Origin: Psammoneis japonica
Lineage: Eukaryota
Assembly (NCBI GenBank): GCA_008632985.1
Contig: QPGO01000053.1
Coordinates: 372,001 to 436,000 of the forward strand
Direction: 5' to 3'
Length of the DNA stretch: 64,000 nucleotides
The notes beneath the pieces were generated by a model. The model was not told where the DNA came from and did no database searches. It was given only the letters and a program-made list of their open reading frames with translations. The position numbers and the translations under genes are program-made. Numbering within the stretch: the first letter of the stretch is position 1; the number at the start of each line of letters is the position of its first letter. Below, one piece after another: positions 1 through 64,000 of this stretch.

Positions 1-14
1 TGTTGCAGCATTGA

Positions 15-3289: not shown

Positions 3290-3359
3290 GACCCAGGCAT
3301 GTGTGTCATGAGGGTCATGTGAGCAACTTCACAAGGACTTGGGGACAAACAAGCTGAAG

Positions 3360-22361: not shown

Positions 22362-23072
22362 TCAATCGCTTTTGACGTTTTTCAGTTGCACAGCCATGTC
22401 GTCCATTGCAAACTGCATTCGTTCTGCTTCCAAAAGGGCATCCTCAAAGAATTTCTCTGGTTTGGTTTTGGCGGCAGAAAATTCAACAAAATTGGCCGAA
22501 TAGCACGATGTATCGGCAGCCACAAGAGCCGAATCAAACTCATTCATTGCTTCTGTGTATTCCACAATATCGTCCGCCACCTCTTGAAGTTCCTTGAGAA
22601 CCTTTTTAATGCCATACAAGCCTGACGACACACCGACCGTGCCCAAGTACCGTCGAACATTGTCGCCGCCACCGTCCTTTACAATGTCGTCGTAGTTATT
22701 GATGAGATACTTTAGCGACTCTTGTGCCTTGTAGAATCGTTTCATGGCATCCGATGTACCCATTGCCTGACCTGCCGTGAATACTTGTGCCTCGGCTGAA
22801 TCATTCGACATGATTACTCCCATGGCGTTTTGTGGAAGAACCAACATTGTCAAGCCCGCAATGCTTTGTTGCAACAGCAATCTACGAGACGTCGTGTCGT
22901 CACCTTGTTCCTAATGAAACGATTTCCCGCTCAGGACGACGCCCGTGCGGCCGTCATTGTTGCACCGTGTTGCTTGAGCCGGTGAGGAATGTATAGAAAA
23001 AGAGAAACCAGGCTCAAGCATGAAGAAGGATGCGACCACAAAAGATAAAATGATTCTTGACAATTCCACCAT
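22362..23072 (-). CDS. Probable plastid thylakoid-lumen protein (in-frame TAG at 22911-22913 in this sequence)
   Basis: Signal peptide, transit peptide, SRR twin-arginine motif and hydrophobic segment. The mature part contains GDNVRRYLGTVG, which I recall from uncharacterised algal plastid proteins. Confidence 0.65.
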
Positions 23073-23768
23073 GTTGAATTACAACTATACTTTGTGTTGT
23101 TGACGTCTGTTTCGCAACAATGGTGCAACCAGCACAAACTCAACCGCAAGAGAACTTGAAGTAGCGTGATTTCGGCGGTTTCTTGTTTTTTGCGTTGCGT
23201 GTTGGCGGGAAAAATCGTCGCGCGCCATAATAATCGCGAGATCGCGCAAGTTCGAGGTTCGCAAGCCTGTGTCGTCGCTGTCGCCTTCATGCGGCACTTC
23301 ATAGACTAGCACTGCGTTTCACTTTTGCTCTAACCGCAACTGCAGGCATAAAAAAGAGCTTTCCGATATTTGCTCTATCTCTCGAGAATAGTCTGGAGCC
23401 ATGTCTTTTTCGAACAAGCGATCGCGAGTGTCTTGTTTCGACAACAACCTTCTGGCAGCTGTGAAGCTGGTCACCGAGACAGCAAATTTCTCGACAGCGA
23501 AGATCTCGGTCACTTCTTGCTGCTCACCTGGACCACCCACCTCCAAATGTTTTGCCAAAGTTGAAATGTAGGCCCCGCATGTAGATTGTGGATGCACGAA
23601 AAATCCACCGCCTGTCAACTCATTCAGCGGCAGCAGCTCTGCGCATTTTCCACCTGCACCTCACACGCACACACACTCACCTGCACAGTCCAATGACCAC
23701 ACTCTGCACACTGTGTGGCACATGCATGAGATCATCTGTTTGATGCAAATTGCATGTGGCACCACAGC

Positions 23769-24003
23769 AGTCACGACTCAATGTCATTCTGGTCGCATCT
23801 CACGACTGCAACCCAGACTCAGATTTTCTCTTCGAAACAATTGGCTCATCACAAAATCGATTCAAACAGAAGCAACGACATTCGTCATAATTTTCTAGAC
23901 AACGACTTTCAACAAGCGTCTGTTTACCTCTGTCGCTGTTCATGTTGCCACCAACCTCCGAGGTCTTGTCCATCCTGCTCAGCTGTGGGACTGCATCTCG
24001 ACT
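23769..24003 (+). repeat. LTR copy 1
   Basis: agtcacgact...catctcgact, 235 bp, near-identical to copies 2 and 3. Confidence 0.95.
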
Positions 24004-24071
24004 GGTTGTAGAGACCAATTTACGCGTTGACGAGAGCTCCTGACCGAGTCATCATCACGGTTGAGAGGGAG

Positions 24072-24306
24072 AGTCACGACTCAACGTCATTCTGGTCGCA
24101 TCTCACGACTGCAACCCAGACTCAGATTTTCTCTTCGAAATAATTAGCTCATCACAAAATCGATTCAAACAGAAGCAACGACATTCGTCATAATTTTCTA
24201 GACAACGACTTTCAACAAGCGTCTGTTTACCTCTGTCGCTGTTCACATTGCCACCAACCTCCGAGGTCTTGTCCATCCTACTCAGCTGCAGGACTGCACC
24301 TCAACT
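24072..24306 (+). repeat. LTR copy 2
   Basis: agtcacgact...cacctcaact, 235 bp. Confidence 0.95.
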
Positions 24307-24468
24307 GGTCACAGAGACCAATTCACGCGTTGACGAGAGCTCCTGACCGAGTCATCGTCACGGACGCTTTCGGTTTTTGATTTTGAAGCAAACCCGGGAA
24401 ATAGCTGAGTCTCTCTCGCTTCTCTCGTCTTCACTCTAACAAGAACCTCCCATGCTGCACTCTCTGTC

Positions 24469-27400
24469 ATGGCTGCCATCGATCCAGATGTTCTGGCAAA
24501 GGCGTTTGCCGATGCAATGGCCGCCAACGCCATGGCGGCCGCTCCTCCGGCTCCAACCAAGCCGTCACGTGGTGGAATTCACCCAACCCACGGGGTTTAC
24601 ATTGGTGGTTCCAAACTCAACAACAACTGCGAACAATCCAACGACAGAACCTACCGATTCGCCTCTCAGCGCCGTCATCCCAAGGCTCTCGACTCGACAG
24701 AACGATCTCTCCGCGATCAACAAGCTTCCGCAATGACTTCCAAGTTCAACGGTCGACTTGAGATTTCGGACGGTCCCATCAACGAGCTTGACAAGGACCA
24801 TTTCGTCAAGACTGTTCGAGATCTAGTAGAAGCCCACGGTCAGCAGACGTTCTACCATGTCAAGGACAGCGACGACAAGGTTCAACATGTCTTCGACCAT
24901 CTTCACGAGTTCACTGTGACCGATCTCGTGAACGAGTACACGGTTTGGGAAAGCAGCCACCGATGACGCCAAGTACGACGAGATCGAGCTCGACGACATC
25001 GGGCTCTCTCAACTTCTCGTTCACTCAAGAATCACTGACACCTTTCGCGAGAAAATCGAGACCAAGTTCAACCATCTTTTGGACTGCCAAGACTGCCCTG
25101 GATCTGTTCTGTTCATGATGGCTCTCGACACTTGCAATGCTGGCGCTCTAACGGACATTGAGACGGCTGAGAAGCAGCTAGAAGACCTTAGTTTGGTTGA
25201 CTATCCTGGCGAGGATTGCACGGACTTTGCTGCCGAAGCTCTTCGCATCGTGAAAATTGTGCAGACCGACTGCGCGCTTCCGGCGAACACAAGCTCCAAG
25301 CTGCTCCACAAGATCTCCTCTGCGTCCTCTGAATGCTTCAATCGCCGAGTCTACAACAAGCTCGACGACGTCAAGGCTATGGAACGCAAGTGCCGCCTCA
25401 AGAATCCTGCTGACATCGTGTCCGACAGCGATTGCAAAACGCTCGGACCGGTCGGTGTCATTGCGTGGATTCAAGAGCAACACAACGAACTCGTGAAGGA
25501 CGGGGAATGGCCTGCATTAGTCGCCAAGCTACCCGAGAGCAATCTTTCGACTGCGGACAACCCTGGGAAGACGAAGCACTGTTGTGGTTGTGGTCTCAAG
25601 GGGCACACCAAGAAGACGTGTCCGAAGTGCAACGCCAAACCGCCGCGCGACGATCCTCCTCCCAATCCGCCGCCTGCAGACAACCCTTCCAAGAAGAAGA
25701 GGCGACCCATCGCTGCCTGGCGCACTAAATTTGACGGAGAAACGAAGAAGGATAAGAATGGCAAGGAATGGAAGTGGTGTGCCACGTGCACGGCGAAGGG
25801 TGCCGACAAACCTGGAATCTGCCAGAAGCACTCTACCGCGGAACACACCGACGACCGCAGGCAACCTCCCAAGGAGACCCCAGCCAGGAATTTGTCTTCC
25901 GTTGCTGATCTGGACAGTGGCGTGCCCATGGGTCCGCCCGCTCAGACTGCCAAGGCACCAGAGGGAGACGAATCCGACCCCAACGAGTTGGTTTTCACGG
26001 GAATGTGGTGCGCAGCTACGGATCCCGTTGCCGACCCAGATTTCTGTTCCGCCCCTGTCACCACTGCAATTGTTGTTACTCCGGCTTCTTTGGCCGAGAG
26101 GGAGAGCGATGCAGTCATTAGCACTGAGGTGGTTTGCATCGAAACGAGCCCACCTGCACTCACCTCAGTCGTGGATCCAGTCGTGTCTCCCATCGTGGTT
26201 GAGACTGTCACTCCCGAAGACGCCGATGACTTCTACGAACACTCCGACGCTTTCTCTGCCTTTGAAAACGAACCACCGGCTATTGAGTTGTTTCCGGCCT
26301 CGAAGCTGCACTCTGTCAAGCATCCAGATGAGTTCTTTGACGCTCCCGCACATTTGACTGACATGCTGTCAGACGACACCAAGTTGGATCTCATCCTTGA
26401 ACACGACGTACACTTTGAAGACGCACACTACGACTTGCCTCCGTGTGTTACGCATCGTGGCTTCGATTTCTACGATCCAGAGGTCCTGGATGCGGATGAT
26501 TGTCACGAGGACGTCGAAGACGAGCCCACTTCGCGTCGCTCACTCTTGGGTCGAGTCAAGCCACTCACACTCTGGCTCGCCGCCATGTTTTGGGAAACGG
26601 CACTGCATCTTTGCTTTGCTCCGATCCCATGCATCCCTCGAGCTCTACGCCGCCAGCGCAAACTCCCAACTTTGCACGGGTTTCCAGCCTCCTGGATGGT
26701 CCCATCCGTTGCAGTGATGGCATGGTCAGCAGTTTACGCCGGTCAACAGCCCGAGCATCCATTCTCGAACGCACCAAGTCGTTTTTCGACCGCCAGCTCT
26801 CAAGTCTACCACATTGTGGAAGAGCTAGATGACCGGATAGTGTTGGACACGGGGTCACTGTTCGAACATCACAGGATCAAAGGCACGCAAGCACTCGCCG
26901 AGTTTGTCGCGCGCCATCCGTCACACGCACTGAGCACTCGTCTCAAGGCCTGCTGGGAGAGCCCAGAAGTAGCTGAACGGTCTGATGCGATGGACGAATC
27001 AGCCTTCTTTGATGCCTGTGAGGAACTGGAACCTCTCGACGACCAGAAGCAATTCTTTGACGCTCTTGAGGACTTCAGCCCGGATTTCTTCCGGTTTGAC
27101 GAGCTCTGTCTGCCGCATCATGTCGTGGACACCACCCATTTTCAAGATCCTGTGGAACCATTGGAGGAAGCAAGTGTCAGACCAGTCGTCTGCAATGCCT
27201 CCACCATCCAACTGCTCACCGGACAATCACAAGCCGACCTCCTTGCATCCGATCCGCAGGCACTCATCGGTCTGTCGGACGAGGCTCTCACGGTCGTCAT
27301 GGACACTGGTGCCACGTTAGCCATTGCCCCCGACAAAGCTGATTTTACGGGGCCTGTGACTGTTCCCAAGAAACCCTTACAGATCAATGGGATTGCCAAC

Positions 27401-30400
27401 GGTCTCACCATCCAGGGCACCGGTCCGGTTGCGTGGGTGTTCACAACGCCGAGTGGGGCTACCATCCAACTGAACACCATGGCATGCTACGTCCCTGGAG
27501 CCCGTCAGCGCCTGCCATCGCCTCAACGCCTCTTCAACGAAGAGAAGGGGGTACGTGGGAAGTGTGAGGGCGATGAAGCCACTTTCCATTTACACATTGA
27601 CGGGACAGGCAAGTTGGTCGTGCCACATCATCCATCAAGCCACTTGCCCATTGCGTCGATGACCAAGGGCGCATCTGCCGCTCCTCAAGTGAACCTTCAG
27701 ATCCTTGACGAGGAGAATCGAAACCTCACGGCAGGCCAAAAGCTTCTTCTCGAAATGCACGCCCGTTTTGGCCATTTGAACTTTGGTCGCGTCCAAGCAC
27801 TTCTCCGCGCAGTTCCGTTCCTTTCGAACCGTTTCAAGTCTGCAGCAAAGTGTGACCACCCAAGATGCGAGGCACGCGAATGTGCTAAAGGTCATGGACG
27901 CTCTCTTGGATCTACTCACAAGTCGACCGTCCCTGAACGCGACGGGGCCCTTCGAGCTGACCATCTTCGACCGGGTCAGGCTGTCAGCATTGATCATTTT
28001 GCGTCGCGCCTTTTGGGCCGCACCTTCGACTCTTGTGGCAAAGCCACGTCCAAGCAATTCAAGGGCGGTTGCATCTTTGTCGACCACGCCTCTGGCTATG
28101 TCCAGGTCGAGCACCAACTGGGTTTCTCCGCTGTTGAGACGACACGCGCGAAGCAAGCGTTTGAGAAACATGCTTTGGACCACGGGGTCATCGTCCAAGA
28201 ATTTCTTGCCGATGGTGGCGCTTTCAAGGCCAACGCTTTTGTACAACACATGCGAGAACATGAACAACGTCTCCGTTTTTGTGGAACCAACGCCCATCAT
28301 CAGAACGGCGTCGCAGAGCGGGGCATCCGCAGCATCTCCAACATGGCGAGAGCGATGTTGCTTCATGCATCAATCCACTGGAAGGGGGGAATTGACAGCT
28401 CCCTGTGGCCCATGGCAGTTTCTCATGCCACGCACATCTACAATGTCACCCCAAATTCCAAAGGACATTGCCCAGCGGACATTTTCACCGGTTCGACAGT
28501 GCCAAGACATCGGTTGCGCAACATTCACACATGGGGATGTCCAGCGTACGTACTTGACCCGACCCTCGCTTCCGGGAAGAAGCTCCCGCGTTGGGAGCCT
28601 CGCACTCGTTGCGCTTTGTTCGTGGGACTCAGTGCCATCCATTCCAGTGAGGTTCCTTTGGTCCTCAATCTTCAAACTGGAAGTGTTGCACCTCAGCATC
28701 ATGTGGTCTTTGACGATCTCTTCGCCACCGCACCATCAATCGAGAGGGAGACGGATCCACCTGATCACTGGGAACACTTGTGCCTCAACCAATCGACATG
28801 CATCCCTCTGGAGAAGGATCAGGCAGTTCATTTGCACGATGAGTGGCTTGCCCCTCCAGAGCGTCAACGTAAAGAACGAGAACCAGCCAGAGCAACACGC
28901 ATTCGCGGGCATTTTGAGCCTGCTCCATCGATTGCTGTGCCGGATTCACCCACTTCTCGCGACGACGTTGCCGATCGAGTCGCACCTGCGACTCAGCAGC
29001 CAACACCACCAGTCCCACCTGCGACTCAAACTCCTGCAGACTCTACGGACTCTACGCCAATTCAGCCACCTGAACCTCAAGACAGCAACGGACTTCCGCC
29101 ACCCGAAGCGCCGACGGAACCAACAGCTCCTCCCCCAGTCGAGACACCTCCCATGACGAATCCAGAGGGAGCACCAGGGCTGCGACGGTCTTCACGGTCA
29201 ACCAAGGGACAGCTCAACTCTGCCAAGTTTGTAGATGAGGTCTGCTTCAGCTCCGTCGAGGAAATGCCGCTGCCGATTGGACACGAGGCTCAACTGGCGC
29301 ATCTGGCGACTCTCGAGACGGATTTGGACAGTGGTGCCATCAATGTCGGCGATCCATGAGCCTGCGCAGCTAGTGAGAAAACCAAGGACCCTGACATGCC
29401 TTCGTCACACAATGCTCTGAAAGGTCCGGATGCCGACGAATGGATTGAGGCGATGAAAATTGAAGTCAACGCACTCATGCATCGTCCAGCCTGGAAAGCA
29501 GTCGAGCGTCAGCCGCGTGTGAATGCACTTCCAGGCACATGGGCACTGGAGCTCAAGAGACTCCCAGATGGAACCCCTCTCAAGTGTGAGGCCCGACACT
29601 GCGTCCGCGGTGATTTGCAGAAAGAAGGAGTCGACCACTTCGAAACCTGCGCGCCGGTTGTGCAGTGGTCCAGTGCCCGACTCATGCTCACTGCGGCATT
29701 AAAGGAGGGATGGACTGCACGACAGGTGGACTGCACCACAGCCTTTTGCCAAGCTGACATCGCCGAGGAAGTTTGCACAACACCGCCGAAGGGATTTGCG
29801 CCAAGGTCGGGACTCAACATGGTTCTCAAACTTTTGAAAGGACCACACGGCCTAAAACAGTCTCCCAAGGGCTTCTGCGAGAAGTTACGAGCTGGTTTAA
29901 CCGAGCGCGGATGGGTGCCTTCAGCCATAGATCCCTGTTTGTATTTCAAAGAGGGCATGATGTGTGTGGTGCACGTCAACGACACCGTTTTTGCTGGAGC
30001 TTCAGCTGAAGCTCTAGAAGCCGAAATTCGCAAGTTAGGAGTCTCCGACGACGAACATCGCCACGCATTTGAACTTAGAGACGAAGGAGAAGTCGGCAAC
30101 TTTCTCGGCATCAAGATCGAAAAGCTCTCCGAGGGTCGATTTCTGCTCACTCAACCCGGTCTAATTGACAAGGTCCTGCGCACCGCACAGATGCAGGATT
30201 GCAATGGAGCATCTGCTCCAGCTCTACCTGCGGCCATTGGTGCCGACACGGACGGCCTGCCTTTTGATGAACCCTGCGATTGTCGCTCAGTTGTTGGAAT
30301 GTTGATGCACTTGGCAGCGAACAGCCGGCCAGACATTGCACATGCCACACATCAAGTGGCTCGATTCTCGTTTGCGCCCCGAGCGTCCCACGCTGCTGCA

Positions 30401-31060
30401 GTGAAGCGGATGCTCCGACACCTCAAAGCAACTGCTGCTGAAGGTCTCATTCTCAAGCCTGCGCAAGATCATCGAGTTGATTGCCACGTCGATTCTGACT
30501 TCGTGGGGTCATTTGGTGTGGAAGATGGTCAAGACCCAGTTTCTGTCAAGTCCAGGACTGGACACCTCATCTGCTGCGCCGGCTGCCCGCTTGTCTGGGT
30601 GTCCAAGCTGCAGACTCTTGCAGCATTGTCAACTGTGGAAGCGGAATGTGTCGCACTTTCTCAAGCCATGCGCGATCTCATCCCTGTTCGTGAAGTTCTC
30701 AAGGAGCTCAACCACCACGTGTTTGGAAAGTCTGACCGCCAAAACCCCATCACGACTCACTCCAAGGCTTTTGAGCTCGCAACCCAAGGCACCGATGACT
30801 CGCCTGTAGAGCAGAATGTCCTGCCTGCGTCCATTGTGTGCGAAGATGACTCCGCGTGCCTCAAGTTCGCACGTGTGCCCAAGTTGTCTCCGCGAACCAA
30901 ACACATCGGCATCCCGCACCACTGGTTTGGGACTAAAGTCGAACAATTGGAGATCGACATCCAACCTGTCAGCACTCTAGAGCAACCAGCCGATCAGTTC
31001 ACGAAGGGACTGCGGACCGATGCGTTCCGTGCGGCTAGAAAGGCTCTTGTGGGCTGGTGA
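24469..31060 (+). pseudogene. Copia Gag-Pol polyprotein, inactivated
   Basis: Zn knuckle CCGCGLKGHTKKTC, protease VMDTGAT, integrase (HARFGH..VSIDH..IFVDHASG..HHQNGVAER), RT and RNase H. Frameshift near 24940, premature TGA at 29357 (CGA>TGA), catalytic YVDD read as HVND at 29972-29983. Confidence 0.93.
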
Positions 31061-31081
31061 GCTCTCTCGGTTGAGAGGGAG

Positions 31082-31316
31082 AGTCACGACTCAACGTCAT
31101 TCTGGTCGCATCTCACGACTGCAACCCAGACTCAGATTTTCTCTTCGAAACAATTAGCTCATCACAAAATCGATTCAAACAGAAGCAACGACATTCGTCA
31201 TAATTTTCTAGACAATGACTTTCAACAAGCGTCTGTTTGCCTCTGTCGCTGTTCACATTGCCACCAACCTCCGAGGTCTTGTCCATCCTGCTCAGCTGCA
31301 GGACTGCATCTCGACT
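31082..31316 (+). repeat. LTR copy 3 (3' LTR)
   Basis: agtcacgact...catctcgact, 235 bp, follows the PPT. Confidence 0.95.
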
Positions 31317-31745
31317 ACAGTGCATGCAACAGGTGTGCCCAACATGTTGTTTGTTGATCAAAAGATCTGCAAGGCAAACCACAGCCACTGCAGCAGTCAG
31401 GACAAGTGCAACGAGCAGCACAGGAAGCCTTGTTGGGTTCCCTTTGGGTGACTTTGACTTGCCAATTCAACACTTGCTCAAAAGAGCTGAGTGCAAGTTG
31501 AGCGCATGAAAAACCTTCCACACGTCACATCAGCGCAAGATCTTTTCCCCCCCTCCGCATCTTCTTTTCGGTTGCTCATCGTTCGCACGACTGTCATTGT
31601 TCGGACTTGCTCCAACAGCACATGCCACACCAGTGCGGCAGGGCTCCACTCAAACAAATGGAGACAGCTGAAAAATTGGCCTCAATCCAGACAAATTGCT
31701 TTGGTCACCAAGCACTTGTTGCTTGACAGTTGCTTGGTTTTTTTT

Positions 31746-31832
31746 AATTCTCTGAGCTGGAGCTTGCTTTGTCACTCTGAAATTCTCTGAGCTGGAGCTT
31801 GGTCACTCCAGAATTCTCTGAGCTGGAGCTTG
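31746..31832 (+). repeat. Short tandem repeat (aattctctgagctggagcttg x3), related to 39070-39140
   Basis: Three copies are visible. Similar agctggagcttggtcactc units recur in direct orientation at 39079-39135. Confidence 0.7.
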
Positions 31833-32100
31833 GGTGTCCTGTCACCACTGGTGGATTCTGACAAAAATCAAAGGAATCTTGCTTTTAACAAGATGCCCAA
31901 CTGCCCAACCCAAAAGGGGTCTGGGCAGATGTCATGGCTGACAAGTTGTGGCCAATGAAAAGGTGTTGTGGCCAGCTGTTGTTTTGTGCTCTTGTGTCTT
32001 GTGCAAACAGCACTTTGACAAAATGGTGTGAAGACAGTGGACACCCGGGTGTTGCAAGCCTCTGTTCCACTGCCTGGCACAGTTTTAAGAGTCAGCAGTC

Positions 32101-35100
32101 TCGCGTCTGGTGGGGCAACAATCTGAGATGCGCGCCAGCATGACAAAATTCCCACAACTGTGGAAAGTCAGATTTGTCTTATGTTCTTAATTGTGTGATG
32201 CAAGAGCTGCATGCCGGTGTGCAGAAAACTGACGTTGCACGTTAAACCAAGCTGCAATCTTGCACGCTCACATGCAAGTTGATTTGTGCAACACAATCTT
32301 GACACCTGCCACGTTGTTTTTACCACGTGGTTTGTCCCACTCATTTTCATGTCACTTGTTTTTACAAAATGAACAATGGTGCTTCCCTTTGCCATTGGCA
32401 ATGATTGTCCTGTGTGTGGCAAACGTTTTCTCCCAACTGGTCTTCAACACCACCTGAGAACTCATCTTCCCTGCAAACTGTCCTTTTCTCAAAGCCTTCT
32501 TCGAGCCGCATCTTCCCACCAATCTAACACCACTCATGGCAAACAGTCCCAAATGGGAGAATCGGATGAACATGTTGACACTGCTGCGTCTTCTACCCTT
32601 GGCACTCCTCCCATTGAATTTCTCGCCACAGGGTCTGACTCCAATGCTGGGCCAACTCCACAAGGTTGCACGCAACTCAATCCCCGGCCGCTGCAATCCA
32701 ATCATGCATTTTCATCTGCACCAGAGCTGTGTGGTCCCCACAACAACTCCATTTTTCCCCACGCCAATGATGTTTCAGAGTGCCAGTTTCCTGACCACAA
32801 AGAACTTGTTTCCGACACCGAGGTTTCTGCCACTGTGGCAGCTGAATCTGGCCCTTTTGCTGTTCTTGATCAAGTTGGACACCTCTCCGCGGATGAGGAC
32901 CTTGTGGCTCTCAAAGTTTACAACAGCAAAACCATGTCCATGGTCTGCATGTTGAATTGTGTTGTTCCAAGGGCACCCCAATCAGCATCACAGATGAATT
33001 GCTGAGAACTGTGTGGGAGGAATTCTCCAGTGGTGGGTTGTCTGTCACCTGACAAATGCACTCTTCTTGAACTTTCATGTCCAAGCTCAAGTTAATGTTG
33101 CCCAGCATTGTTGCTCCTGTTCTGCAGCGAGCCCCCCTTGAGTCCATTTCCATCATCAACCAATTCACACAACATCCAATGACACAGAGTTGCAGATGCA
33201 TTCCTTGGCAGCCCAGTTCTTGGATCGACCAAGCACCTGTACATCGGCGTTCATGTGATTTGGATGTGGAGTGTTTGTCTCACGGTGGTCCACAGTGTGG
33301 ACATTGAAACCAATTTTGACTGGTGCCTGACAACATGCTGCACATCTCTGCATTCCTGGGTGGAGACATTGGTGGTCTCATCACCAAAAACAATGCCAAC
33401 AACCAACACATTGTTGTTGACAGTGATGTTCTTGGCAGTGGGGATTTTGGCTGTTTCTGTTGAGTCATCACATGATCCAAAACTGTGGTTGTCCAACTCT
33501 GCTTGATCGGCAAAGAGGGGCTCATCACAACAGTCGTCTGCAATTGCTCCTTCTGGCAATTGTTGGATGGCATTAATGGCACCAGAAACAGGTGCTTCAC
33601 AGTCACTTGTGTTGTCTGGTGTTTTTTAACGGAAGTGGCAATGTCGCTGTCCTTGGACATTTGCAGGTCTTTGGTGGCTGAAGTGCCAAACAATGATGGG
33701 TGGATCGACTTTGACTGTCCGAATTGGTTTGAATGCAAGCAAAACTCTGCTGACATTTCCTTCTGTGATTCAATCAAAGTCCCTCCACATGGGAACCAAC
33801 AGAAGCACTGCCAATCACATCAGTGGACATGCTGTTTTCCCGGACCTTGGCATTGTGTTGGCACTTTCTTTTCCGGGCAAGACATTTTCTCCCAGCATCA
33901 GCCTCTCTTCGTCTGGCTGCATGTGCTGACAATTCCTCTGCCACCTCCCTCAATGCAGAGGACAGATGTTTGTCACTGCAAACCATTGAAAACAGTGACA
34001 AAGTGCTCTTGGCTGGATTGCCAAAGCTTGGCCAGCAGGAAGTGTGTTGAGAAATCCATCCGTGTTGAGAGCATGGAATGAATGATTGATGTGTGTGGGA
34101 GACAATCCAATGGAAGAGACCTTCTTGCATGTCAAAGTTCTCTTGCTCACACGCTGATCGGGTTGGAAATGCACACGTTGCTGAGAGATTTTGTTGTTTT
34201 TGTGATTGAGTCCCATCAAAATTGGAGGGAGATGAGATGCTGCATGAAAGGTGGAACACAACAATGACATGGAAGGTGATTGTGGATGTCACGGCAAGGT
34301 GAGGGCACAACCTGGCGATGCCACACAACACAGTTGTGAAGTTTCTGTGCTGCATTGTGACCACAGCTCTTTGGTGTGAGGAGCGTCACATGGGGCTGCA
34401 TGTCAAGTTAGTGCAATTGTCCACATGAATGAAAATTGAATTGCACAAAATGTCTTGCACACTTTGGTGACAGTGTGAAAAATTGCACCACAAATCTGTG
34501 CAATTGTGCAAAGCATCAAACCCATTTTGGCAACAGTGTGCGGATTTATGTCACAAATGTGGGAAGTCCAAACCACAGCATTTGCAATGAATGTCAAAAT
34601 TTTGCACTCTCTTTCAGTGATGTGAGACACACAAAAGACACAATTTTGAATGTCATCCATTGCACACAAAGGGCACACACAACACACGCCTTAATTGTTT
34701 CATTTGAGGATGCTGAAAATTTCCAAGAGAGAGAATGTACAGCCCATTGCCCCACTTGTGAAATTTCAAGATTTGGTGACTGTGCAGAGAACTGCCCACA
34801 CAGCTGCCAAACCCATCACAATTCCCCATCTGCACAGCAGCAAACAACATCAACAAATGCTCGGGGGCTGACATCGAAGATGTTGTGCTCAAATTGCAAA
34901 CAGTGCAGCATGCTGGGCAGCCTGGGATGCCTTGCATCAACAAAGGGCATCCTGGAATGCGTGTTTTTCTACATCAGCCGCTGGAGAATGATCTTGAAAA
35001 TGGACCCAGTTAACAAACTGTTGAGGCCACATGTGCTCAATGCTTTGCGAGAAGCAGTGGAGTGAGACGATGCATTGACAATGTGGAGACACAACTTGGG

Positions 35101-38073
35101 CTGTCCCAGACACACTTCAATGTGGCAATGCCAGGTCACAAGGCTGTTGCATCATTTGCAAAGAGACCACATTGAGGGAGAATTCCAGACATTCAGTTTG
35201 CATGAAAAACTGGATAAAAAACAGAGTGCACATGACGACTCTCGGGCACTCAATTTTTGTGTCACAGTGGGACATCATGTGGGCAGTGACAGGTTGCGCA
35301 GGTGCAGCTTGCAACCATTTTTGAAGGGGTGGGTGCAAAAAAACAAAATCCGTTGTGACACATGCATGGACAAAGTGACTTTGGCACTAGATTTGGTGGA
35401 CTTTGAAGTGGAGACACCAGTCAACATTTTGATGTGACAGCCTTGCGTGATCGTGGTGGCTCGCCAAAAAAGTGACATGGAATGCCAGTTCCCAAGAATC
35501 ATGTGTGCTCTGCCACCTGTCAGATAGGACAGCATGGTGGCTGTGAGAGAAGACACTGTGTTAGACGTGGTGCATCTCAACAAAGACGATGCCAGTGTGG
35601 ACATCCCCTGGCCTTTCGCAGAGGGACATTGCCCTCCACCAGTGAGTGGAGACTTGGTGTTGTGCCGGAAAGCGCTCCTGGAATTGAGGGTGTTCTGCAC
35701 AGGAGTGCATGCATCCAGAGAGGGTCACATCAGTGGATTGCACCAAATTGTGGAGTGCTTGCACGAATTGCACAAAACCTTGAGAGAAGAAGCGGGTGTC
35801 ATTGAGGAAGACAGAAGGGTGAGAGCAAGACTGGACGATGAGTGAGGGTGAAGAGATGAGCCCAATTTCCTAGAAAGTTTTAACTCAAACTGGACGACCA
35901 AAACATGAAAAATTTTAATGCACTGGCTGGTTGCAAATGATGTCAAACAATGCTCTGTTTGTTGCGGGCGACGAGCAGGGGACAGCCAAGAGCATGGGGA
36001 CCCAGACGGAAAAGCGAGATGTTGCAGGCCAGCTGAAAATGCAAAAAGAAGTGTTTGGACTGCAGCCCTTTCATCCATCAAAATTGTGACCCAAAAATGT
36101 GATTGGACGGCAATTTGAAAATTCTGGCATGCAGCAACTGGAAGCGGCATTGTTCTTAGCGCGGATCATGCTGTGTGCAGTGAACAGATGATGCAAGGCT
36201 GCAAATGACAACACCTGCCATTCAAAAGGAATGTAAAATCCATCAATTGAGGTCCAATGATGATTGAACAGAGAGAGCACATTTGAGAAGGGCAAACAGG
36301 CATGCTGGCAGGCATGCACTCCAGACTGGGTTTGGTCCAAGGGAAAATTTACGTTGACACAAACACGTGGGAATGGGTGGGCAAACATGTTGGTGCGAAA
36401 CAATTCATCAGGCACGTGCGTTGCGGCGATGACTCCTCTGATGCGCAAATGGGTTGGACTGCTGATGCTGATCATGTGTCCTTCATTGCAGTTGGCACCC
36501 ATGACACAGCAGAGACAGGATCCCAAAATGTGGAGATTGCGGGAATGTCAGTAGTCAGCTTGGAGGTGGCGAAGAGAAAGTTTGTGGACAGCCAGACAAC
36601 CAACTGTGCCACGATGGCTGTGCACCCCAAGACAAAGTTTGTGACACACAACAAGGTCAAGTTGGCTTTCGGGAGCCAAATGCAGAAAAAGGTTTGCAAA
36701 CACCTCAACATGGACGTGAGTGACTGTGCAGTTTGGTGGGAAGAGAACACAGAGAAGGCAAGGAAAAGACCAAACAGGAGAAGAAACAACAGGCAGGAGG
36801 TTTTTAGAAAGAAGATGGTTGGCAAGTGCAGCTCAGGCTGCATGTGGATGAGATGGAGCAGTGTTCTCACCCGTTGGTTCTTGCTCAGAGATGGCTGGAT
36901 GCGATGGAATGCCAAGTGTCAAAGACATCAAAAAGGGCAGGGCATTGCCTCAAACACACTTCTGGTTCTTGGAAAATTGCTGCTCCCTTGCGGCAGGAAC
37001 AGAGCACTTTGAAACAGTGGACAGCCAAGGTGTCGGCGATTGGCCAACAACAAGTGCAGAAGCTTTTGCCAGGCTGATGTGTGACAACCACTGCAACGCG
37101 GCCATGTTGGTGGCAGAGATCAAAGAGCAATTCGAAGAAAACAGAAGGGTGCAACAACCAACCCAGCCCATGGCCCCAAAGCACACTTTCATGGGGAAAG
37201 GTGCAAAGTGAAATCAAGGATGGAACCAGGATGGGATCAGCAAGTGCAACAAACTCTACAATGCGGTGGTGAAGGAGAGAACAGATTGTGGCTGAGTCGA
37301 TGCACAGTGTGTGCAGACAAAAAATGAGAGAGCGCACATGGCAAGAAAAAAAAGAAGAAAAAGAAGGGCAGCATGAGGGGATGGGCAGCTCCAAAAATTG
37401 ATTGGAGCGACAGTGAGGAGGAGGCCACAGGAAGGAATGACAAACAGGGGAGGAAAGAGGAAGAGACTCCAGAAGCAGCAGCAACCAACAACAGTGCTTT
37501 GCCACAAACAAGTTCTTGAGGAGGCAGAGCAAACAATGACCCACAGAAGCGAGCGAGGATGCAATGAACATGCTGGTGGCATGGCAGCAACATTCACCAG
37601 CACGCAGCAGAAAATGATGACAGCAGAAGCATTGACCACAAAATCAACTCAGTTCGGCAGCTGCAACATCATGGAATGTGAGCCGGGCATTGACCGGAAA
37701 GAAATGTTTCACATGGTGAAAAGTGTCCAAGTGTTGCACTGCAAAATGTCGGGAATGTTGTGTCCATGTGCTCACTGGATTTAAAGAATGGTTTGAAAGC
37801 AATGTGAATCGGGGGCTGGTCTGAAGGCAAATTGTCGCACGGTGAAAAGTGGATGAGTGTTGCACTTGAAAATGTTGGTGTGACGTTGTCCGTGTGGATG
37901 TTGTGTTTAAATTTTCTTGCCACACATGACAAGAAAAACTGCATTGGAAGTGGGATTTCTCACACGGCGTGCGAAAAATTTTGAATTAAATTTTAAAAAT
38001 TTCAGGCATGATGGGCAAGAATGTCACACGCAAGTTTGTGTGCGATGTCAGATCATTGCCCCACCAGACACGA
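32101..38073 (+). mobile_element. Degenerate ~6-kb TIR DNA transposon (Plavaka/CMC-like, tentative)
   Basis: Left TIR tcgcgtctggtggggcaacaatctga matches the reverse complement of the right end, tcgtgtctggtggggcaatgatctga. N-terminal C2H2 finger CPVCGKRF..LQHHLRTH. A second ORF remnant has WWEE..RRNN, TTSAEAFARL..KHT and GWNQDGISKCNKL, resembling accessory ORFs of such elements. Confidence 0.6.
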
Positions 38074-39421
38074 AGGTCCAGAGCTCAACTCTTCACCACA
38101 CCACCCATCTCCCAGTGCCTCTTGGGCAGGCATCCTCTGCTCCTGGCCATGACATCATCAACAAAATGAATCAAAGCAATCAAACCATTTGGGTGTGCCT
38201 GCACAGCAGCTGAACTCTGCTCTCTGGTTGTTCATCCACACAAGGAGTGCCACAATGCCGCACATGGCATTTCTTTCTGAGGTGGATCTGGCACTGATTC
38301 CATGTGATGCCATGTAAAATGCCACATTTTGCACATGAAGAAGGTGTGCCGGCAATTGATTTGTGATTCCTGGCTGCAAAATGTCATTTCTCATGCACTC
38401 AGGAGCCTTCCAATGCTGCTGCCTGTTGCTTTTCCCTTGTGCCAACCACAAGCCCCCATGCCCTGTGGTGTTTGATGCTTTGCTGTCAATGGCAAAACAG
38501 CTGGGAATCATTGGAAAAATGGTGGTGCCACCTTGGATGCAAGTGCCACATTCATGCCACATTTGGGACAAATGTGGCATTTGTGTGGATGGCCACCTTG
38601 TGGGGCCTGCATGCAAGTTCCCACCTCAAGCAGAGTGAGCAAGCAAGGTGCCTGTCAGACCTTGAAGCACAAGCACCAACTGCACTTGAGGAGTGCTGAT
38701 CGCACTGTCCAGAAGGGGGCAGAGATGTTGTGAAGCAATGCAAAATGGTCTTGTGATGGCCTTCCCAGCAGATTGTCTTTTGTGAAGACAGCAGACATGC
38801 CAGCTGTGCCAGGCAGTGGAGCAGAAGTGTGCCAGCTTTGCCTGGCAGTGGAGCAGATGTGTGACACCCAGATGTCCACTGTCTTTGCAAGTGGAACTTT
38901 GCTGTGTGCTTTTAATCTGACTGAGTGGGTTTGCTCAGCTTCGCTTCAGAGCAAATCGCAGTGCAGGTGACCAAAGTGCACCAGTGTGAGCTTCTCCACA
39001 ACACAACACTGTCAATTTTTCTTTTTTCTTGAAGTTGAAATGGCAGTGCAGCCACCTCTACAACTTGCAGAATTTCCAAGCTGGAGCTTGGTCACTCTTT
39101 GAAAATCTCCGAGCTGGGGCTTAGTCTCTCTGAAAATCTGGACAAAAAACTCAAACCCAGTTTTAAGTGCCGCTGCACCTTTGCCTGGCAACACCGGCAC
39201 CAGCCAACCCACACTTCCAGCACACCCTGCAGCTGCTAGAATTGTCTCTGGCTGCAGCTACTAGAATTGTCTCTGAAAATCTGGACAATTATCACAGGGT
39301 ACCGTGATGATTTAGGGATAAAGAATTGTTGCCAAGAACAACACACATTTCTACAAAACTACTTTCTCTCAATCTCTAGAAAGTCTACGTGTAGTAGATA
39401 GCGAGATCAGCTTAATCGCAA

Positions 39422-41398: not shown

Positions 41399-44300
41399 TG
41401 TCCCTGAACGGTCTTGACACATACGGTACATACAGTGCCGGTGCTGTAAGTTGTCCACGTACCGCACCGGTGCGCACGAACACGAAAAATTGACTGCAGC
41501 CACAGTGTTCGGGTTTTTCTGTAACAGAATTTCTAACTTCGAGGTGTCAGCAATCCCGGTCATTCGAATCTCCCGAATCTTGCAGCCGCTGACGCAGTTA
41601 TGACGTAGAAGTTTACTTCACTCTTCCCTTCCGCGATGATTCATGCAAATGCTTTGATTCGCAATCCATCTGTCATGCCGAAGTCAATGTGGCAAAATGT
41701 GCCGAGTGTCAATCCTTTCAAATGCATGAGGCGCTCTTTGCATTGCAACAGCACTCTCATTCACATGAACTTGTGCAACAAGAAAAGGGCCAAAAAATCT
41801 GGCTTCCAATTTGTTGGCAGGATCGTCTGTCTTGATCAAAATTTGCTGCCCGACACGACAATCGAAAAAGCGTCTTTTGAGATTTTGCTGGTGCAAGTTG
41901 TCATCAGTCAACCCTTGTTGATGACTCCGAGTGGTGACCAAATCTCCAATGAGAGGCAAATCAAGAAACACGTCTCTCTGGCAGATGAGAGCTCCTGGCG
42001 AAATTCTTAAAACTCTCGAGGTGGCGCATCGCAGACTGTGCACAGTTGCAGCCAATGCATCATCAACAATCTGTTGAGCTTGTGCACATTGTGAGAAGGA
42101 TGTCCTCTGATTGCAGCTTCAATGACGTTGCCAGCAGACTGATGCATTCTCTCACAAATGGCGCTGGCTTGAGGATTTCTGGTGGGGGTGGTTTCCACAC
42201 CCTCAATTGCTGCTGTCGCCAATGGAATCTGAAATGGTTTGCCAACAAATTCACCACCCTTGTTGTCAATGCAGCAGTCCAGCCTTGGACATCTGGCCAA
42301 CCAACAATTGGCAAACTTCATCTGCGCATGATCTGAAGTCTTGTTGTTGACGCGAACCAGTTCAACGAGGTCAGAAACAGGGTCAATCGCAGTCAACATG
42401 TCAAACTCAACTTCCTGCTCTTGCACTCACATTTTCCAAGGACCAGTTGAATCAACAGCAACTTCATCCCAAGGAACCAAAGGAGCTTCTCTTGGTGGCA
42501 AATGGCTCCATCGAACTCCCCAAAGCTTGTTCCTTTGGCGCACATTGCAGCGACAATTTTCAGCCAATCGTCGCAGCACCAGATGATGACAATGTGTGCA
42601 AATCAAACAACAAAGCTTCTGTGTGCCACAATGCCCTGAGACTTGACAATGTCGCCTGACAACAGGAGCCAACAAGGCTGTTGGCAAAGTGATTTTCCAG
42701 CCATTCTCCTGTGTGCATTGAAATTCCACTGCCGCTCTTGACTCAGCTCTTGATCTTCAAACTGAAACCTTTGCACTGCATCTCTTCTGGACTCAGACAG
42801 TGCAAAAGGCAATTCACCAATTCTTGATCTTGAACAGTGCAAAACAAGGTGCTCAATTCAGGGCCCAAATTTTCTTTGAGCGACTCATCTTCTGGAGCCA
42901 TGGCAGTTGGAGGAACCAAAAAATCAACAATGGCGCCTTTCAACTCCACTCTAGAACTCTTCCCTTTCACAGTTTTCTCAACATGAGAAAATCATGAAAA
43001 GAAGTCAGCCAGAATGTTCTCCTTGCCTTCAAGACATCTGAACTTGGGTCCAAATTCTTCAAGAAAAAGGCGCCAACAAAGTGCTTGTTGCACACTCAGC
43101 ATCTTGAAGGTGAAGTGCTTGTCGTGATCCATGTGGGCTGTTGTGTCAGCTCCCAACAACACAGATTGAAACTCTTTAAAACAAAGAACTGCAACAAACA
43201 TTTCTTTTTCCACAGTGGAGCAATTCTTCTGAGCCACACTGAGTTTTGGGGGCCAACATGCAACCAGCTTGCCGCTCTGAGTGATGACTGTGCCAAGCTG
43301 ACAATCGCTCGCATCTGTGCAAATCTGAAAAGGAAGGTTGTGATCAGGGCAAGCAAGTGAAATGTCATCCACAACAATGTGAGTTCTTTCACAGGCATGG
43401 ACTTGCCCAACCACTTGACTGTCCTTGATGAGAAATTTACATGGATTCCTGCCTTGGTCAAAAAATCTGTGATCCAAGAATCACGTTGCATTGACACAGC
43501 ATTTGAAACACCAGCGCTTTTTGAAAATCAACACTTCTTGACATGTCAAATTCAGGCAGTGCAATTGTCGAGTCAGGACCAAACTTCTTCTTGTTCCCAC
43601 CAGAATCCATGTCCTTGGCCTTGCACTTCTTGAGCTCATCTTCAGGCTTGCCAAAGCTCTTCTGATCAGCAAATCCTTTTTCATTGGACACATGCTGGTC
43701 CATGTCTTCCAAGGAATTGGTGCCAACATCTTTTCCCATGTGCACACAATTCTGCTTCCATGTCATTGGCACTCCTGTGAACACACCATTTTTGGTCTGT
43801 TGCTCATTGAGCAAAGGCTCAGTGTCTGGCAACTTGTCAGCACAACGTGACATCTGAGTCATCCTGCCAGCATGCTCATGAGGAGAATCACCAAGAGGTC
43901 CAGAAAAGTTTTCAAAAATTCAAACATTGTGTCACATGCTTGACAATTGCAGTGTCACTGACAAAAGCATGCAACCTCAATGTCAAACCTGGCCATTGTC
44001 CAAACAGTTTCTGTGACACCCGAAACCAGATTGCTCCACATGTCTTGAGAATTGTCTTCCAATGCTTCTTCAAAATGAGCAAACTTTTCAGGTCCTTCAT
44101 CACAATCCAGATGCTCGGCACAGTTCTTAAAGCATTCTGCAGTGTGGAGCAAGCACTTGATGCCGCACTTGCCAGTGAACTGAGGGCACATTTTCTGCTT
44201 CTTGGTGCCATCATCACAGTTTTGTGCGAGCTTCCCTTTGTCCAAATCTCCGTGTTTGAAGGTTGGTTTGCTGCACACAAAGCATGGTGCTCTCAACGAG

Positions 44301-44580
44301 GCTCTCACCAAATGCAACATTGACCTTGCGTTTGAAGCAAAGAGTGCCACAGCAAAGAAAAGAGAAGGAAAGAACAAGACACAGTGTGATCACATTGAAT
44401 GGTCTTGACAAGTTGTCCATGAATGCACTCTAAAAATTGCAAGGAAAAGCTGTGATTGACTGCAGCCACAGTGCTTGGGTTTCTGTCACAGAGTTTTTTT
44501 GAGGTGTCAACAATCCTGGTCATTCAAATCTCCCAAATCTTGCAGCCGCCCACACAGCTGTGATGCAGAAGTTTGCTTCA
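41399..44580 (-). mobile_element. Ty3/Gypsy LTR retrotransposon 1, internally deleted
   Basis: LTR-like copies at about 41399-41620 and 44395-44580. PPT at 41621-41633. Integrase (PWDEVAVD..NPQASAICERMH) and RNase H ([21 protein letters not shown]) remnants. RT is missing. Confidence 0.85.
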
Positions 44581-63983: not shown

Positions 63984-64000
63984 GCCAACGGTCCAAATAA

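Follow-up and report, generated by a model that had tools for sequence, protein, structure and literature searches.

What process makes the LTRs, PBS copies and target-site copies of a single retrotransposon insertion differ from one another almost exclusively at TA and CG dinucleotides, and did it act on RNA or on integrated DNA? The locus in question is a Ty1/Copia retrotransposon at positions 23764–31321 of a window of Psammoneis japonica DNA (64 kb, the whole stretch analyzed), described in an earlier note as a young Copia caught in mid-mutation; coordinates and sequence strings proved to be as written there. Its kin are Copia elements from marine metagenomes, with identities of ∼55–60%.

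A simple, intact Copia does not describe 23764–31321, which is a dead, three-LTR composite. The features that follow are all on the forward strand. The left 5-bp target-site copy (23764–23768, ACAGC) is followed by LTR1 (23769–24003, 235 bp, AGTCACG...CTCGACT, 3 TpA remaining) and by PBS copy 1 with a 43 nt leader (24004–24059; PBS at 24004–24016, ggttgtagagacc). The leader fragment breaks off at a deletion junction marked by CGG microhomology, where it is directly abutted by a polypurine tract copy (24060–24071, gttgagagggag). LTR2 (24072–24306, 235 bp, 6 TpA remaining) is the 5' LTR of the full-length copy, and PBS copy 2 behind it (24307–24319, ggtcacagagacc) carries CA at both ancestral TpA. 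The full-length copy ends with a polypurine tract (31070–31081), LTR3 as the 3' LTR (31082–31316, 235 bp, 3 TpA remaining) and the right target-site copy (31317–31321, ACAGT). Positions 24055–24306 match 31065–31316 at 97%. In this composite, LTR2 is common to an internally deleted unit (LTR1, PBS, 43 nt leader, polypurine tract) and the full-length copy. That three LTRs lie between one pair of 5-bp target-site copies was absent from the earlier note, as was the heavy mutation of the coding region.

Open frame 1 (24409–24966) encodes the N-terminal part of gag, and the frame changes near 24944 into open frame 2; in read-derived contigs the base at 24944 is absent in 251 of 1001 depth. Open frame 2 (24932–29359, with an in-frame TGA at 29357–29359) holds the gag zinc knuckle and the protease and integrase parts. 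Its Pfam matches (Pol_BBD, gag_pre-integrs, SH3_retrovirus) are weak and all below cut-off, in a Copia-like order. Reverse transcriptase and RNase H (RVT_2) occupy 29360–31060, and YVDD has become HVND at 29972–29983. Like copia, Ty5 and the diatom CoDi elements (Ty1/Copia), the element has RVT_2 behind integrase, a 5-bp target-site duplication and, as seen in its relatives, a PBS of the GGTTATGAGCCC type. Unlike them, it has an unusually long polyprotein region (∼2200 codons), three LTRs, and LTR ends AGTC...GACT instead of TG...CA. The family is of high copy number, with a summed contig depth of ∼5000 within the element versus 56 in the flanks.

Twelve columns vary among the three LTRs and five more in the 56-nt stretch behind LTR1 and LTR2. 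All 17 are transitions. Sixteen lie in pyrimidine–purine steps, versus a background of 48% of the 289 scored columns (one-sided binomial p = 7.6e-5), so the differences are not evenly spread over contexts and the proposed near-restriction to TA and CG contexts is upheld. Six columns set TA against TG or CA, four set CG against TG or CA, and six form three adjacent pairs of TG versus CA; the single column outside such steps is T/C at LTR position 228. Where one copy has TG and another CA, a TA ancestor would have been hit on opposite strands. Counted as site-copies over the LTR and PBS stretches, 16/30 TpA and 4/51 CpG were lost, with 1 change at all other positions. Pairwise differences per 235 positions are 10 for LTR1–LTR2, 8 for LTR1–LTR3 and 6 for LTR2–LTR3 (2.6–4.3%); the read evidence consists of collapsed contigs of the family and gives no copy-by-copy support for the three LTR sequences. 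Since LTR1 may derive from a different copy, its differences from LTR2 and LTR3 are not certainly post-insertion.

The direction of change was read from relatives and from an empty site. All four relatives whose 5' LTR end escapes the contig ends have GGTTAT directly behind the LTR, followed by GAGCCC in L001 and L024, GAGTTT in L035 and AATCC in L079. Thus both the TG in PBS copy 1 and the CA in copy 2 come from TA, and the two copies were damaged independently, as had been proposed. The focal PBS aligns with the relatives' GGTTATGAGCCC given one extra A and one mismatch. Copia and Ty5 are primed by the anticodon arm of the initiator tRNA, and GGTTATGAGCCC, in which ATG is the complement of the CAT anticodon, presumably fits the same mode of priming. 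A read-derived contig (run X1) joins 23763 straight to 31317 with ACAGT present once, identical to the right target-site copy. The left copy was therefore mutated T>C at the new T|A junction after integration, which settles the post-insertion origin claimed for that difference; perfect 5-bp duplications flank both relatives in which both flanks are available. The epithet "young" holds only insofar as the site is empty in a public read set and the insertion is thus polymorphic. The element itself is a three-LTR composite with a ruined reverse transcriptase motif. CpG decay could be polarized at 13 sites with CpG in almost all of the family depth, where the focal copy has CpA (11) or TpG (2). 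At 25456, 28726 and 30874 (TG/CA), nearly all of the family depth shows the dinucleotide opposite to that of the focal copy, and subfamilies must therefore predate the hits on those TA sites.

The coding region records the same direction. Of 389 columns that 31 relatives conserve, 60 differ in the focal copy, by a single TA>TG step at 16 and a single TA>CA step at 13 (29 together); the remainder are CpG steps (2), other transitions (2), transversions (16) and multi-step changes (11). Conserved tyrosines of the RT–RNase H region are retained at 0/15 columns, having become Cys (6), His (7), Trp (1) and Ile (1), while other conserved residues are retained in 50–100% of columns. A change of Tyr to Cys or His corresponds to TAY>TGY or TAY>CAY, and no change of a conserved Cys or His to Tyr was found in RT–RNase H. 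Across 28277–30917, Tyr is retained at 2/17 conserved columns, the rest being His (9), Cys (5) and Phe (1). P0001 has 27 Tyr positions, of which the focal copy shows Tyr at 2, Cys at 8 and His at 10; as a control, 80 metagenome relatives have 37–100% Tyr (median 60%), with Cys ≤1 and His ≤4, at the same positions. TpA o/e is 0.20 in the focal copy versus 0.39–0.92 in the relatives. Loss is greater for Tyr codons (15/17) than for TpA of the LTR and PBS stretches (16/30; Fisher p = 0.024), so some of the coding damage may be older than the insertion, or else rates may differ between parts of the element. Since the changes remove TAA and TAG stops instead of creating them, long open frames persist in a dead element.

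TpA o/e falls below 0.2 in 34 of the 64 1-kb windows, and CpG is depleted too. Over these windows TA+CG is replaced one-for-one by TG+CA (r = −0.95, slope −0.99). An older TpA- and CpG-depleted island (31322–39000, TpA o/e 0.03–0.17) adjoins the insertion and continues for ∼270 bp on its left (23500–23763). Two decayed Ty3/Gypsy copies lie on the reverse strand at 41400–47900; the RT–RNase H stretch tested there (46216–47535) retains none of 16 conserved Tyr, with Cys at 6 and His at 5. It retains 5/18 Arg, with replacements that include Cys (3), His (2), Gln (2), stop (2) and Trp (1). A 1.7-kb copy at 47761–49461 on the forward strand, with its partner at 62285–63984 (94% identity), shows 88 substitutions, among them 16 adjacent TG<->CA swaps. 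CpG o/e in old copies falls as low as 0.16–0.4. The host genes for V-ATPase B, a sulfatase and a transporter are normal (TpA o/e 0.48–0.55, Tyr 2.4–3.8%), which indicates that the processes target transposon DNA or the chromatin on it. On the basis of the 64-kb window, the process acts on transposons genome-wide and is not peculiar to the focal copy.

These comparisons establish the direction of change, its dinucleotide specificity, its strand symmetry and its restriction to transposon DNA, and they show that the changes in the LTRs, the PBS and the target site, at a minimum, followed integration. The LTRs differ mutually, a host-derived base is affected and both strands are hit (TA>TG 16, TA>CA 13), which argues for a DNA-level process and bears out the preference of the earlier note over RNA editing or RT error. 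We think it probable that a Copia at a polymorphic site has been undergoing, since integration, two transition processes aimed at transposons. The faster would convert TpA to TpG or CpA with strands about equally hit, the slower would convert CpG to TpG or CpA, and both would be near completion in the neighboring older remnants. The first could be enzymatic deamination of adenine in DNA, the product being read as G; tRNA adenosine deaminases naturally act on an adenine that follows T (U33–A34). The second is plausibly deamination of 5-methylcytosine.

An unlikely alternative, in our judgement, to adenine deamination is enzymatic modification of the thymine at TpA, such as hydroxylation to 5-hydroxymethyluracil by an enzyme of the TET/JBP type. 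The modified base would mispair with G to give T>C, and A>G would be the same event seen on the other strand. TpA is self-complementary, and a count of 16 TA>TG to 13 TA>CA therefore cannot tell which base was altered. Dinoflagellate DNA has modified thymine enriched at TpA, a point for this explanation. Against it, no sign of such a base in diatoms emerged from the material consulted. The only paper on the TpA signature prefers adenine deamination, as a hypothesis (bioRxiv 10.64898/2026.01.13.699255).

Much less probable is a sequencing or assembly artefact, such as miscalls where bases are modified or a chimera of family copies. The family is high-copy, the collapsed reads do not support each LTR separately, and at 31509 the flanks differ in the length of a homopolymer. 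However, independent contigs agree with the flanks over 1258 bp, the TpA-poor part included, with one substitution (CpG/TpG at 31636) besides that homopolymer base. Errors would not swap conserved Tyr specifically for Cys or His in two families, nor cut TpA to 3% across tens of kb yet leave genes normal, and a chimera would itself be built from hypermutated copies. ADAR-like A-to-I editing of RNA or APOBEC-like editing of cDNA, fixed via rounds of retrotransposition, is equally improbable. Both mutated families tested are retroelements, and ADAR typically prefers a 5' U, according to the same preprint (bioRxiv 10.64898/2026.01.13.699255). RNA editing cannot yield differing LTRs within one insertion, however, nor can it alter a host-derived target-site base; it predicts sense-strand changes alone, against the 16:13 observed, and flanking sequence of unassigned type is depleted too. 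The changes in the LTRs, the PBS and the target site already contradict such editing, although a contribution to the coding changes could still exist. Scarcely credible is methyl-CpG decay with RIP-like C>T at CpA, which would derive TG/CA from CG and make TA the derived state: CpG decay is real (the 13 polarized sites, the 4/51 site-copies, Arg loss in the Gypsy remnant) and the LTR alignment taken alone is equally parsimonious in both directions, but TpA is depleted (o/e 0.03–0.2) rather than enriched, Tyr gives way to Cys or His with no replacement in the other direction, TA stands in the outgroup PBS and T in the empty site, and a CG origin of two LTR TG/CA sites would call for double hits, of which ∼0.15 are expected at 8% CpG loss (hand calculation).

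The only precedent found in the literature concerns another alga, Bigelowiella natans, and is described in a preprint of 2026. In mutation-accumulation lines of that species, integrated viral DNA of giant-virus and virophage origin undergoes TpA>TpG/CpA at a rate of ∼6e-7 per site and generation (Mettrop et al., bioRxiv 10.64898/2026.01.13.699255). As described there, the two systems share A/T>G/C transitions only at TpA (to TpG or CpA by strand), confinement to foreign DNA, a rate orders of magnitude over background, and TpA-poor, CpA+TpG-rich clusters enriched in reverse transcriptase and transposase domains. They differ in that B. natans is a chlorarachniophyte (rhizarian), whereas the present host is a diatom (stramenopile) and the targets are LTR retrotransposons. 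TpA o/e is 0.03–0.1 over many kb here versus 0.45 in the reported virus region, CpG decays alongside, and the evidence is comparative instead of coming from accumulation lines. As in fungal RIP, DNA-level dinucleotide-specific transitions ruin repeated or mobile DNA and leave a dinucleotide signature. RIP, in the account consulted, turns CpA/TpG into TpA, lowers GC and creates stop codons (PMC2621366); here, to the opposite effect, TpA is lost, GC goes up and TAA/TAG stops disappear. CpG methylation has been reported for diatom LTR elements (Maumus et al. 2009, PMC2806351). As in the decay of methylated CpG in vertebrate and plant transposons, CpG>TpG/CpA is confined to transposon DNA; unlike there, CpG covers a minority of the change (4/21 LTR/PBS events, 2/33 single-step coding transitions). 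Animal APOBEC3 and ADAR share with the present case deaminase-type transitions, a neighbor-base preference and inactivated retroelements. Their substrate is cDNA or RNA that has yet to integrate, and they mark one strand, in contrast to the integrated double-stranded DNA, host base and both strands affected here. A recent diatom Copia undergoing destruction in this way points to a genome-defence editing process.

The focal Ty1/Copia retrotransposon (23764-31321) contains three LTRs of 235 bp, which were located with a direct-repeat search at 23769-24003 (LTR1), 24072-24306 (LTR2) and 31082-31316 (LTR3) and are 95.7-97.4% identical to one another. A 56-nt stretch is common to both units, following LTR1 at 24004-24059 and LTR2 at 24307-24362. 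In the first unit it is succeeded directly on its 3' side by a copy of the polypurine tract (PPT), gttgagagggag (24060-24071), and then by LTR2; the stretch and the PPT meet at a 3-nt microhomology, CGG. This junction and the repeat positions give the order LTR1, primer-binding site (PBS), 43 nt of leader, PPT, LTR2, PBS, ∼6.7 kb of internal sequence, PPT and LTR3. The whole composite sits within a single 5-bp target-site duplication whose left copy reads ACAGC and whose right copy reads ACAGT, so the internally deleted unit shares an LTR with the full-length copy. Unequal exchange followed by a microhomology deletion is one candidate origin, and recombination of a cDNA with a resident copy is another. 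The structural hallmarks of Ty1/Copia elements are all present (LTRs in direct orientation, a PBS following the 5' LTR, a PPT preceding the 3' one and target-site copies of 5 bp).

Three open frames occupy the internal region (24409-24966, 24932-29359 and 29360-31060), the first two divided by a frame change near 24944 and the last two by an in-frame TGA at 29357-29359. Position 24944 is also where 251 of 1001 units of family depth are one base short; this may be a frameshift site, or some copies may encode gag and pol in one frame. The third frame encodes an RVT_2-type reverse transcriptase (PF07727, E = 2e-29, 103 bits against a cut-off of 31.6 in a Pfam search), a domain also found in 321 homologs. 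Upstream of it, in Copia order, are Pol_BBD (E 0.047), gag_pre-integrs (E 0.013) and SH3_retrovirus (E 4e-5), all of them sub-threshold in Pfam; HHCC-like and D,D,E-like strings can be picked out by eye. The low scores of this candidate integrase region are probably due to mutation load. For the RT-RNase H frame, the closest proteins come from metagenomes, are unnamed and share at most 60% identity with it. The public sequencing run X1 contains 56% of the sampled words of 23000-32000, and the summed depth of its contigs is ∼3000-6800 within the element versus 56 in the flank. The excess over the flank indicates a multi-copy family, although such sums of contig depth do not translate into copy number. 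Two other runs, X2 and X3, cover almost none of the element, and no RNA data set appeared among the runs listed.

The insertion is polymorphic. One X1 contig (record 1; 4870 nt, depth 56) matches 23000-23763 without difference and runs on gaplessly at 31317-31810, where it differs by a single substitution and by one base in a homopolymer. It therefore joins both flanks and carries the unoccupied site CACC-ACAGT-GCATG. An earlier note had proposed that the two target-site copies, which agree at four of five bases, diverged after insertion, and the empty allele bears this out: the original target was ACAGT, and the left copy, ACAGC, arose by a T>C change. The changed T stood in a TpA that did not exist before integration, being formed by that T and the initial A of the adjoining LTR. 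Perfect 5-bp duplications (AGAGT and CTTGA) are found in both of the related metagenome loci with two flanks (L035 and L079). Between the flanks and the empty allele there is one substitution in 1258 bp, a CpG/TpG site at 31636. Set against this, the LTRs differ by 2.6-4.3%, which is a proxy and not a per-generation rate, and the element has thus changed much faster than its surroundings. A left-flank segment (23375-23529) matches high-depth contigs (up to 442 in X2) at ∼85-90% identity; it is a repeat or gene-family piece adjoining the insertion site.

Every LTR and PBS string quoted in the earlier note is present in the sequence, and its claim that the differences concentrate at TA- and CG-type sites survives alignment of the three LTRs. 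There are 12 variable columns among the LTRs and five between the two post-LTR stretches, all transitions; because the X1 read data are collapsed contigs, the sequences compared are as assembled and are not per-copy read calls. Sixteen of these 17 columns lie in pyrimidine-purine steps, compared with 48% of all columns (p = 7.6e-5), an excess that is not attributable to chance. By type, TA stands against TG or CA in six columns and CG against TG or CA in four; TG and CA face each other in three adjacent column pairs, and one column falls outside such steps. The true pair, LTR2 and LTR3, has six differences (three TA-type, two CpG-type and one other), and for all three of the TA type the TA is retained in LTR2.

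Outgroups for the PBS were those relatives whose 5' LTR end is uncut by a contig end. In all four (L001, L024, L035 and L079) GGTTAT directly follows the LTR, and is succeeded by GAGCCC in L001 and L024, GAGTTT in L035 and AATCC in L079. The ancestral focal PBS was thus GGT-TA-T followed by a second TA. The present copies read GGTTGT (copy 1, TA>TG at the first TA) and GGTCAC (copy 2, TA>CA at both), so the relatives support the idea that an ancestral TA was damaged separately in each copy. It follows that a TG-versus-CA pair represents a single TA hit on opposite strands. The tRNA primer of copia and Ty5 is engaged by its anticodon arm. The relatives' GGTTATGAGCCC includes the complement of a CAT anticodon and would fit priming of this kind by initiator tRNA-Met; to align the focal PBS with the relatives' sequence, one extra A and one mismatch must be allowed. 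Searches of the window and of 33 related loci for tRNA genes gave none. A PBS for a tRNA 3' end (TGG...) was rejected, as it would need an implausible acceptor stem and the relatives favor the anticodon-arm type.

Rates were counted taking TA as ancestral, with eight TpA sites in the LTRs and three in the post-LTR stretches. By this count 16 of 30 TpA site-copies and 4 of 51 CpG site-copies have been lost, with one change at other positions. TpA decay is therefore ∼10 times that of CpG and a few hundred times that of other sites (hand calculation). The initial guess that TG/CA pairs derive from CG by ordinary methyl-CpG decay was dropped, being contradicted by base composition, by the outgroup PBS and by the fate of Tyr codons. 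For the two LTR TG/CA sites, ∼0.15 double hits are expected if they are CpG-derived and ∼2 if TpA-derived; two are seen.

The direction of change was read from coding sequence by aligning the RT-RNase H frame with 29 homologs and scoring columns in which at least 70% of homologs have Tyr. None of 15 such columns retains Tyr (now Cys 6, His 7, Trp 1, Ile 1); for other residues, 50-100% of conserved columns are kept. In a longer alignment, with 31 homologs and extended upstream, Tyr is kept in 2 of 17 columns (His 9, Cys 5, Phe 1). The 60 differences found at 389 conserved columns comprise 29 single-step TA changes (16 TA>TG and 13 TA>CA), 2 CpG steps, 2 other transitions, 16 transversions and 11 multi-step changes. 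Of the 33 transitions at conserved codons that need one step, 29 are thus TA>TG or TA>CA and none runs the other way; no conserved Cys or His has become Tyr. The catalytic YVDD now reads HVND (Tyr>His via TA>CA and Asp>Asn via CG>CA).

A control comparison used the 27 positions at which the homolog P0001 has Tyr, scored in the focal copy and in metagenome relatives. An alignment-based scan gave 205 loci, of which 80 were retained; a single-protein scan gave none. The focal copy has Tyr at 2 positions, Cys at 8 and His at 10. The 80 relatives, a set somewhat biased against mutated copies because one of the two locus-finding peptide patterns includes Tyr, keep 37-100% of these Tyr residues (median 60%), with at most one Cys and at most four His. 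Their TpA observed/expected (o/e) ratio is 0.39-0.92, versus 0.20 in the focal internal region. Loss of Tyr codons in the focal copy (15 of 17) exceeds the loss of TpA in the LTR and PBS regions (16 of 30; p = 0.024), and Tyr content drops along the element, with 4 Tyr among the 185 residues of the first frame and 1 among the 566 of the last. The rate may differ from one part of the element to another, or the coding damage may have been partly inherited from an already mutated source copy.

Both strands are hit about equally (16 TA>TG versus 13 TA>CA in the focal copy). Strand-coordinated clusters in the coding region are not significant, with 14 runs versus ∼15 expected for 16 + 13 events (hand calculation). 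Within 23769-24362, the LTR1 unit has five TA>TG and one TA>CA changes and the LTR2 unit has zero and five (Fisher p = 0.015). CpG>CpA and CpG>TpG changes in the focal copy number 11 versus 2 (p = 0.02). Such strand-biased outcomes over short stretches hint that single events may act along one strand for some hundreds of bases. In the focal element, an A before or a T after the TpA is present at 15 of 29 mutated versus 3 of 34 retained sites (Fisher p = 2e-4). Among the TpA that survive in saturated islands (1-4000, 32001-38000, 42001-52000 and 56801-64000), TTAA is over-represented (38 of 108). From these two contrasts, the target motif may be broader than the dinucleotide.

CpG decay is most apparent at 13 best-supported sites that are CpG in nearly all of the family depth and are CpA (11) or TpG (2) in the focal copy. 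Three further best-supported sites are TG/CA swaps between the family and the focal copy; for the one at 30874-30875, the residue shared by most homologs, Met, fits an ancestral TA that spanned two codons. Note that family-majority letters proved unreliable as a guide to direction at TpA, owing to recurrent hits, and mainly exposed CpG decay. Several relatives, including L078, L053, L016 and L068, have CpG o/e values of 0.12-0.3 with normal TpA, indicating that CpG decay occurs without TpA decay in other hosts of this Copia clade.

The same signature extends over much of the window. In large parts the TpA o/e is 0.03-0.10 and the CpG o/e 0.16-0.4, with TG and CA at 1.7-1.95; in the gene-rich 6-22 kb these values are 0.5-0.75 for TpA and ∼1 for CpG. 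Over 64 1-kb windows, TA+CG and TG+CA are correlated with r = -0.95 and a slope of -0.99, a one-for-one conversion of the former into the latter. Thirty-four of these windows, covering the Copia element, the Gypsy copies and repeats lacking annotation, fall under a TpA o/e of 0.2; for host genes the ratio is 0.48-0.55. Within the 64 kb, the TpA changes are restricted to mobile DNA and the host genes are spared. One of these genes encodes V-ATPase B (11091-12608). It shows 95% identity to a cluster of proteins whose named members come from diatoms (Trieres, Nitzschia and Entomoneis), and its more distant named matches are other stramenopiles, which identifies the host as a diatom. A further host gene, with FAST kinase-like and RAP domains, contains a tandem array of at least 10 units of 111 bp (37 codons) at 54957-56809 on the minus strand, and TpA is at an ordinary level in its 5' part (54-56 kb).

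The minus strand carries two decayed Ty3/Gypsy copies at ∼41.4-47.9 kb. One RT-RNase H stretch of theirs (46216-47535) was translated through stops and compared with 39 homologs. Conserved Tyr is kept at 0 of 16 positions (Cys 6, His 5, other 5) and Arg at 5 of 18, with replacements that include Cys, His, Gln, Trp and stop; TA>TG and TA>CA occur 10 times each. Aligned with the solved Ty3 RT, five Tyr positions are His, Phe, Cys, Phe and His. All 11 stops in its 440-codon frame are TGA. In nearly all of the TpA-poor decayed frames listed, Tyr makes up 0.0-1.0% of residues, and such DNA is long open in several reading frames; erasure of TAA and TAG leaves decayed elements with long open frames. 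When 63 open frames from TpA-poor parts were searched against Pfam, the only named matches were two host genes and fragments of Gypsy RT/RNase H, and most of the frames matched no family. Two 1.7-kb copies, 94% identical and 14.5 kb apart (47761-49461 and 62285-63984, the second reaching the window end), differ by 88 substitutions, including 16 adjacent TG<->CA swaps and 15 CpG-type differences. A segmental duplication could account for the pair, as could their being the two LTRs of a very large element. The Gypsy and 1.7-kb-copy patterns show that the same two processes have acted on unrelated, older elements, near saturation.

The changes, at least those of the LTRs, PBS and target site, were made in integrated DNA, since the LTRs differ and a host-derived base has been altered. 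They are directional, TpA- and CpG-specific, strand-symmetric and restricted to transposon DNA. On the TpA side the most likely chemistry would be an enzyme that deaminates adenine preceded by T to inosine, which is read as G. On the CpG side it would be deamination of 5-methylcytosine; affected DNA carries the corresponding CpG>TpG/CpA signature, with low CpG o/e in old islands, and one study (PMC2806351) reports LTR elements of diatoms to be methylated at CpG. A thymine modification that mispairs with G would yield an identical pattern, and we consider it an improbable but viable source of the TpA changes. A sequencing or assembly artefact is unlikely, given that independent contigs agree over a TpA-poor flank, that the substitutions are amino-acid specific and that genes are spared. 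Editing of RNA or cDNA before integration, of the APOBEC or ADAR type, does not fit: it cannot give LTR, PBS and target-site differences, and it predicts a strand bias, whereas both strands are hit. The earlier note's preference for DNA-level mutation over RNA editing is upheld on these grounds. A TpA-creating process, such as fungal RIP, is excluded by the TpA depletion (o/e 0.03-0.2) and by polarised changes that lead away from TpA.

The most far-reaching reading, to which we give somewhat less than even odds, is a dedicated diatom defence system that would deaminate the adenine of TpA on both strands of integrated, silenced DNA. It would be a mirror of fungal RIP (AT>GC, erasing Tyr and stop codons and raising GC), acting at hundreds of times the background rate within the lifetime of a still-polymorphic insertion. 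A bolder version has a single deaminase with dual A/C activity behind both TpA and CpG decay. RIP itself runs in the opposite direction, with C>T at CpA (or other CpN) and an excess of TpA; here TpA is lost.

No paper describing a TpA>TpG/CpA signature in diatoms was found in a full-text search of a literature collection made up largely of non-subscription journals; the sole report of the signature that it returned is a 2026 preprint on an unrelated alga, the rhizarian Bigelowiella natans (bioRxiv 10.64898/2026.01.13.699255). According to that preprint, two integrated viral regions mutate in 11 of 15 mutation-accumulation lines at ∼6e-7 per site per generation, almost only TpA to TpG/CpA; TpA-poor, CpA+TpG-rich clusters elsewhere are enriched in reverse transcriptase and transposase domains; and an ADAT2-like adenine deaminase acting on DNA is suggested. 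Both cases have A/T>G/C transitions at TpA on both strands of foreign or mobile DNA. They differ in host (here a diatom) and in targets (here LTR retrotransposons), and also in that TpA depletion is much deeper here and accompanied by CpG decay, and in that our evidence is a dated natural insertion, theirs experimental lines. Occurrence of the signature in a rhizarian suggests that such a system is possibly ancestral to the SAR supergroup. Our case is best described as TpA-directed hypermutation of mobile DNA, very recently described and here in a diatom; the polymorphic three-LTR Copia is caught midway through it.

The polymorphic insertion provides a natural time-stamp for the rate. If our reading is correct, it accounts for dead elements with long open frames and no Tyr, which gene finders could take for genes, and it bears on gene and transposon annotation, on LTR-divergence dating and on mutation-spectrum models. 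The question of the enzyme would become approachable via candidate deaminases or thymine modifiers, and a natural double-stranded DNA adenine editor with TpA specificity would be of interest to the base-editing field. Diatoms are major primary producers of the oceans, and some species are genetically tractable. They would, if this is true, inactivate their transposons by directed AT>GC editing of DNA, and a barely described type of genome defence would extend across eukaryotic supergroups.
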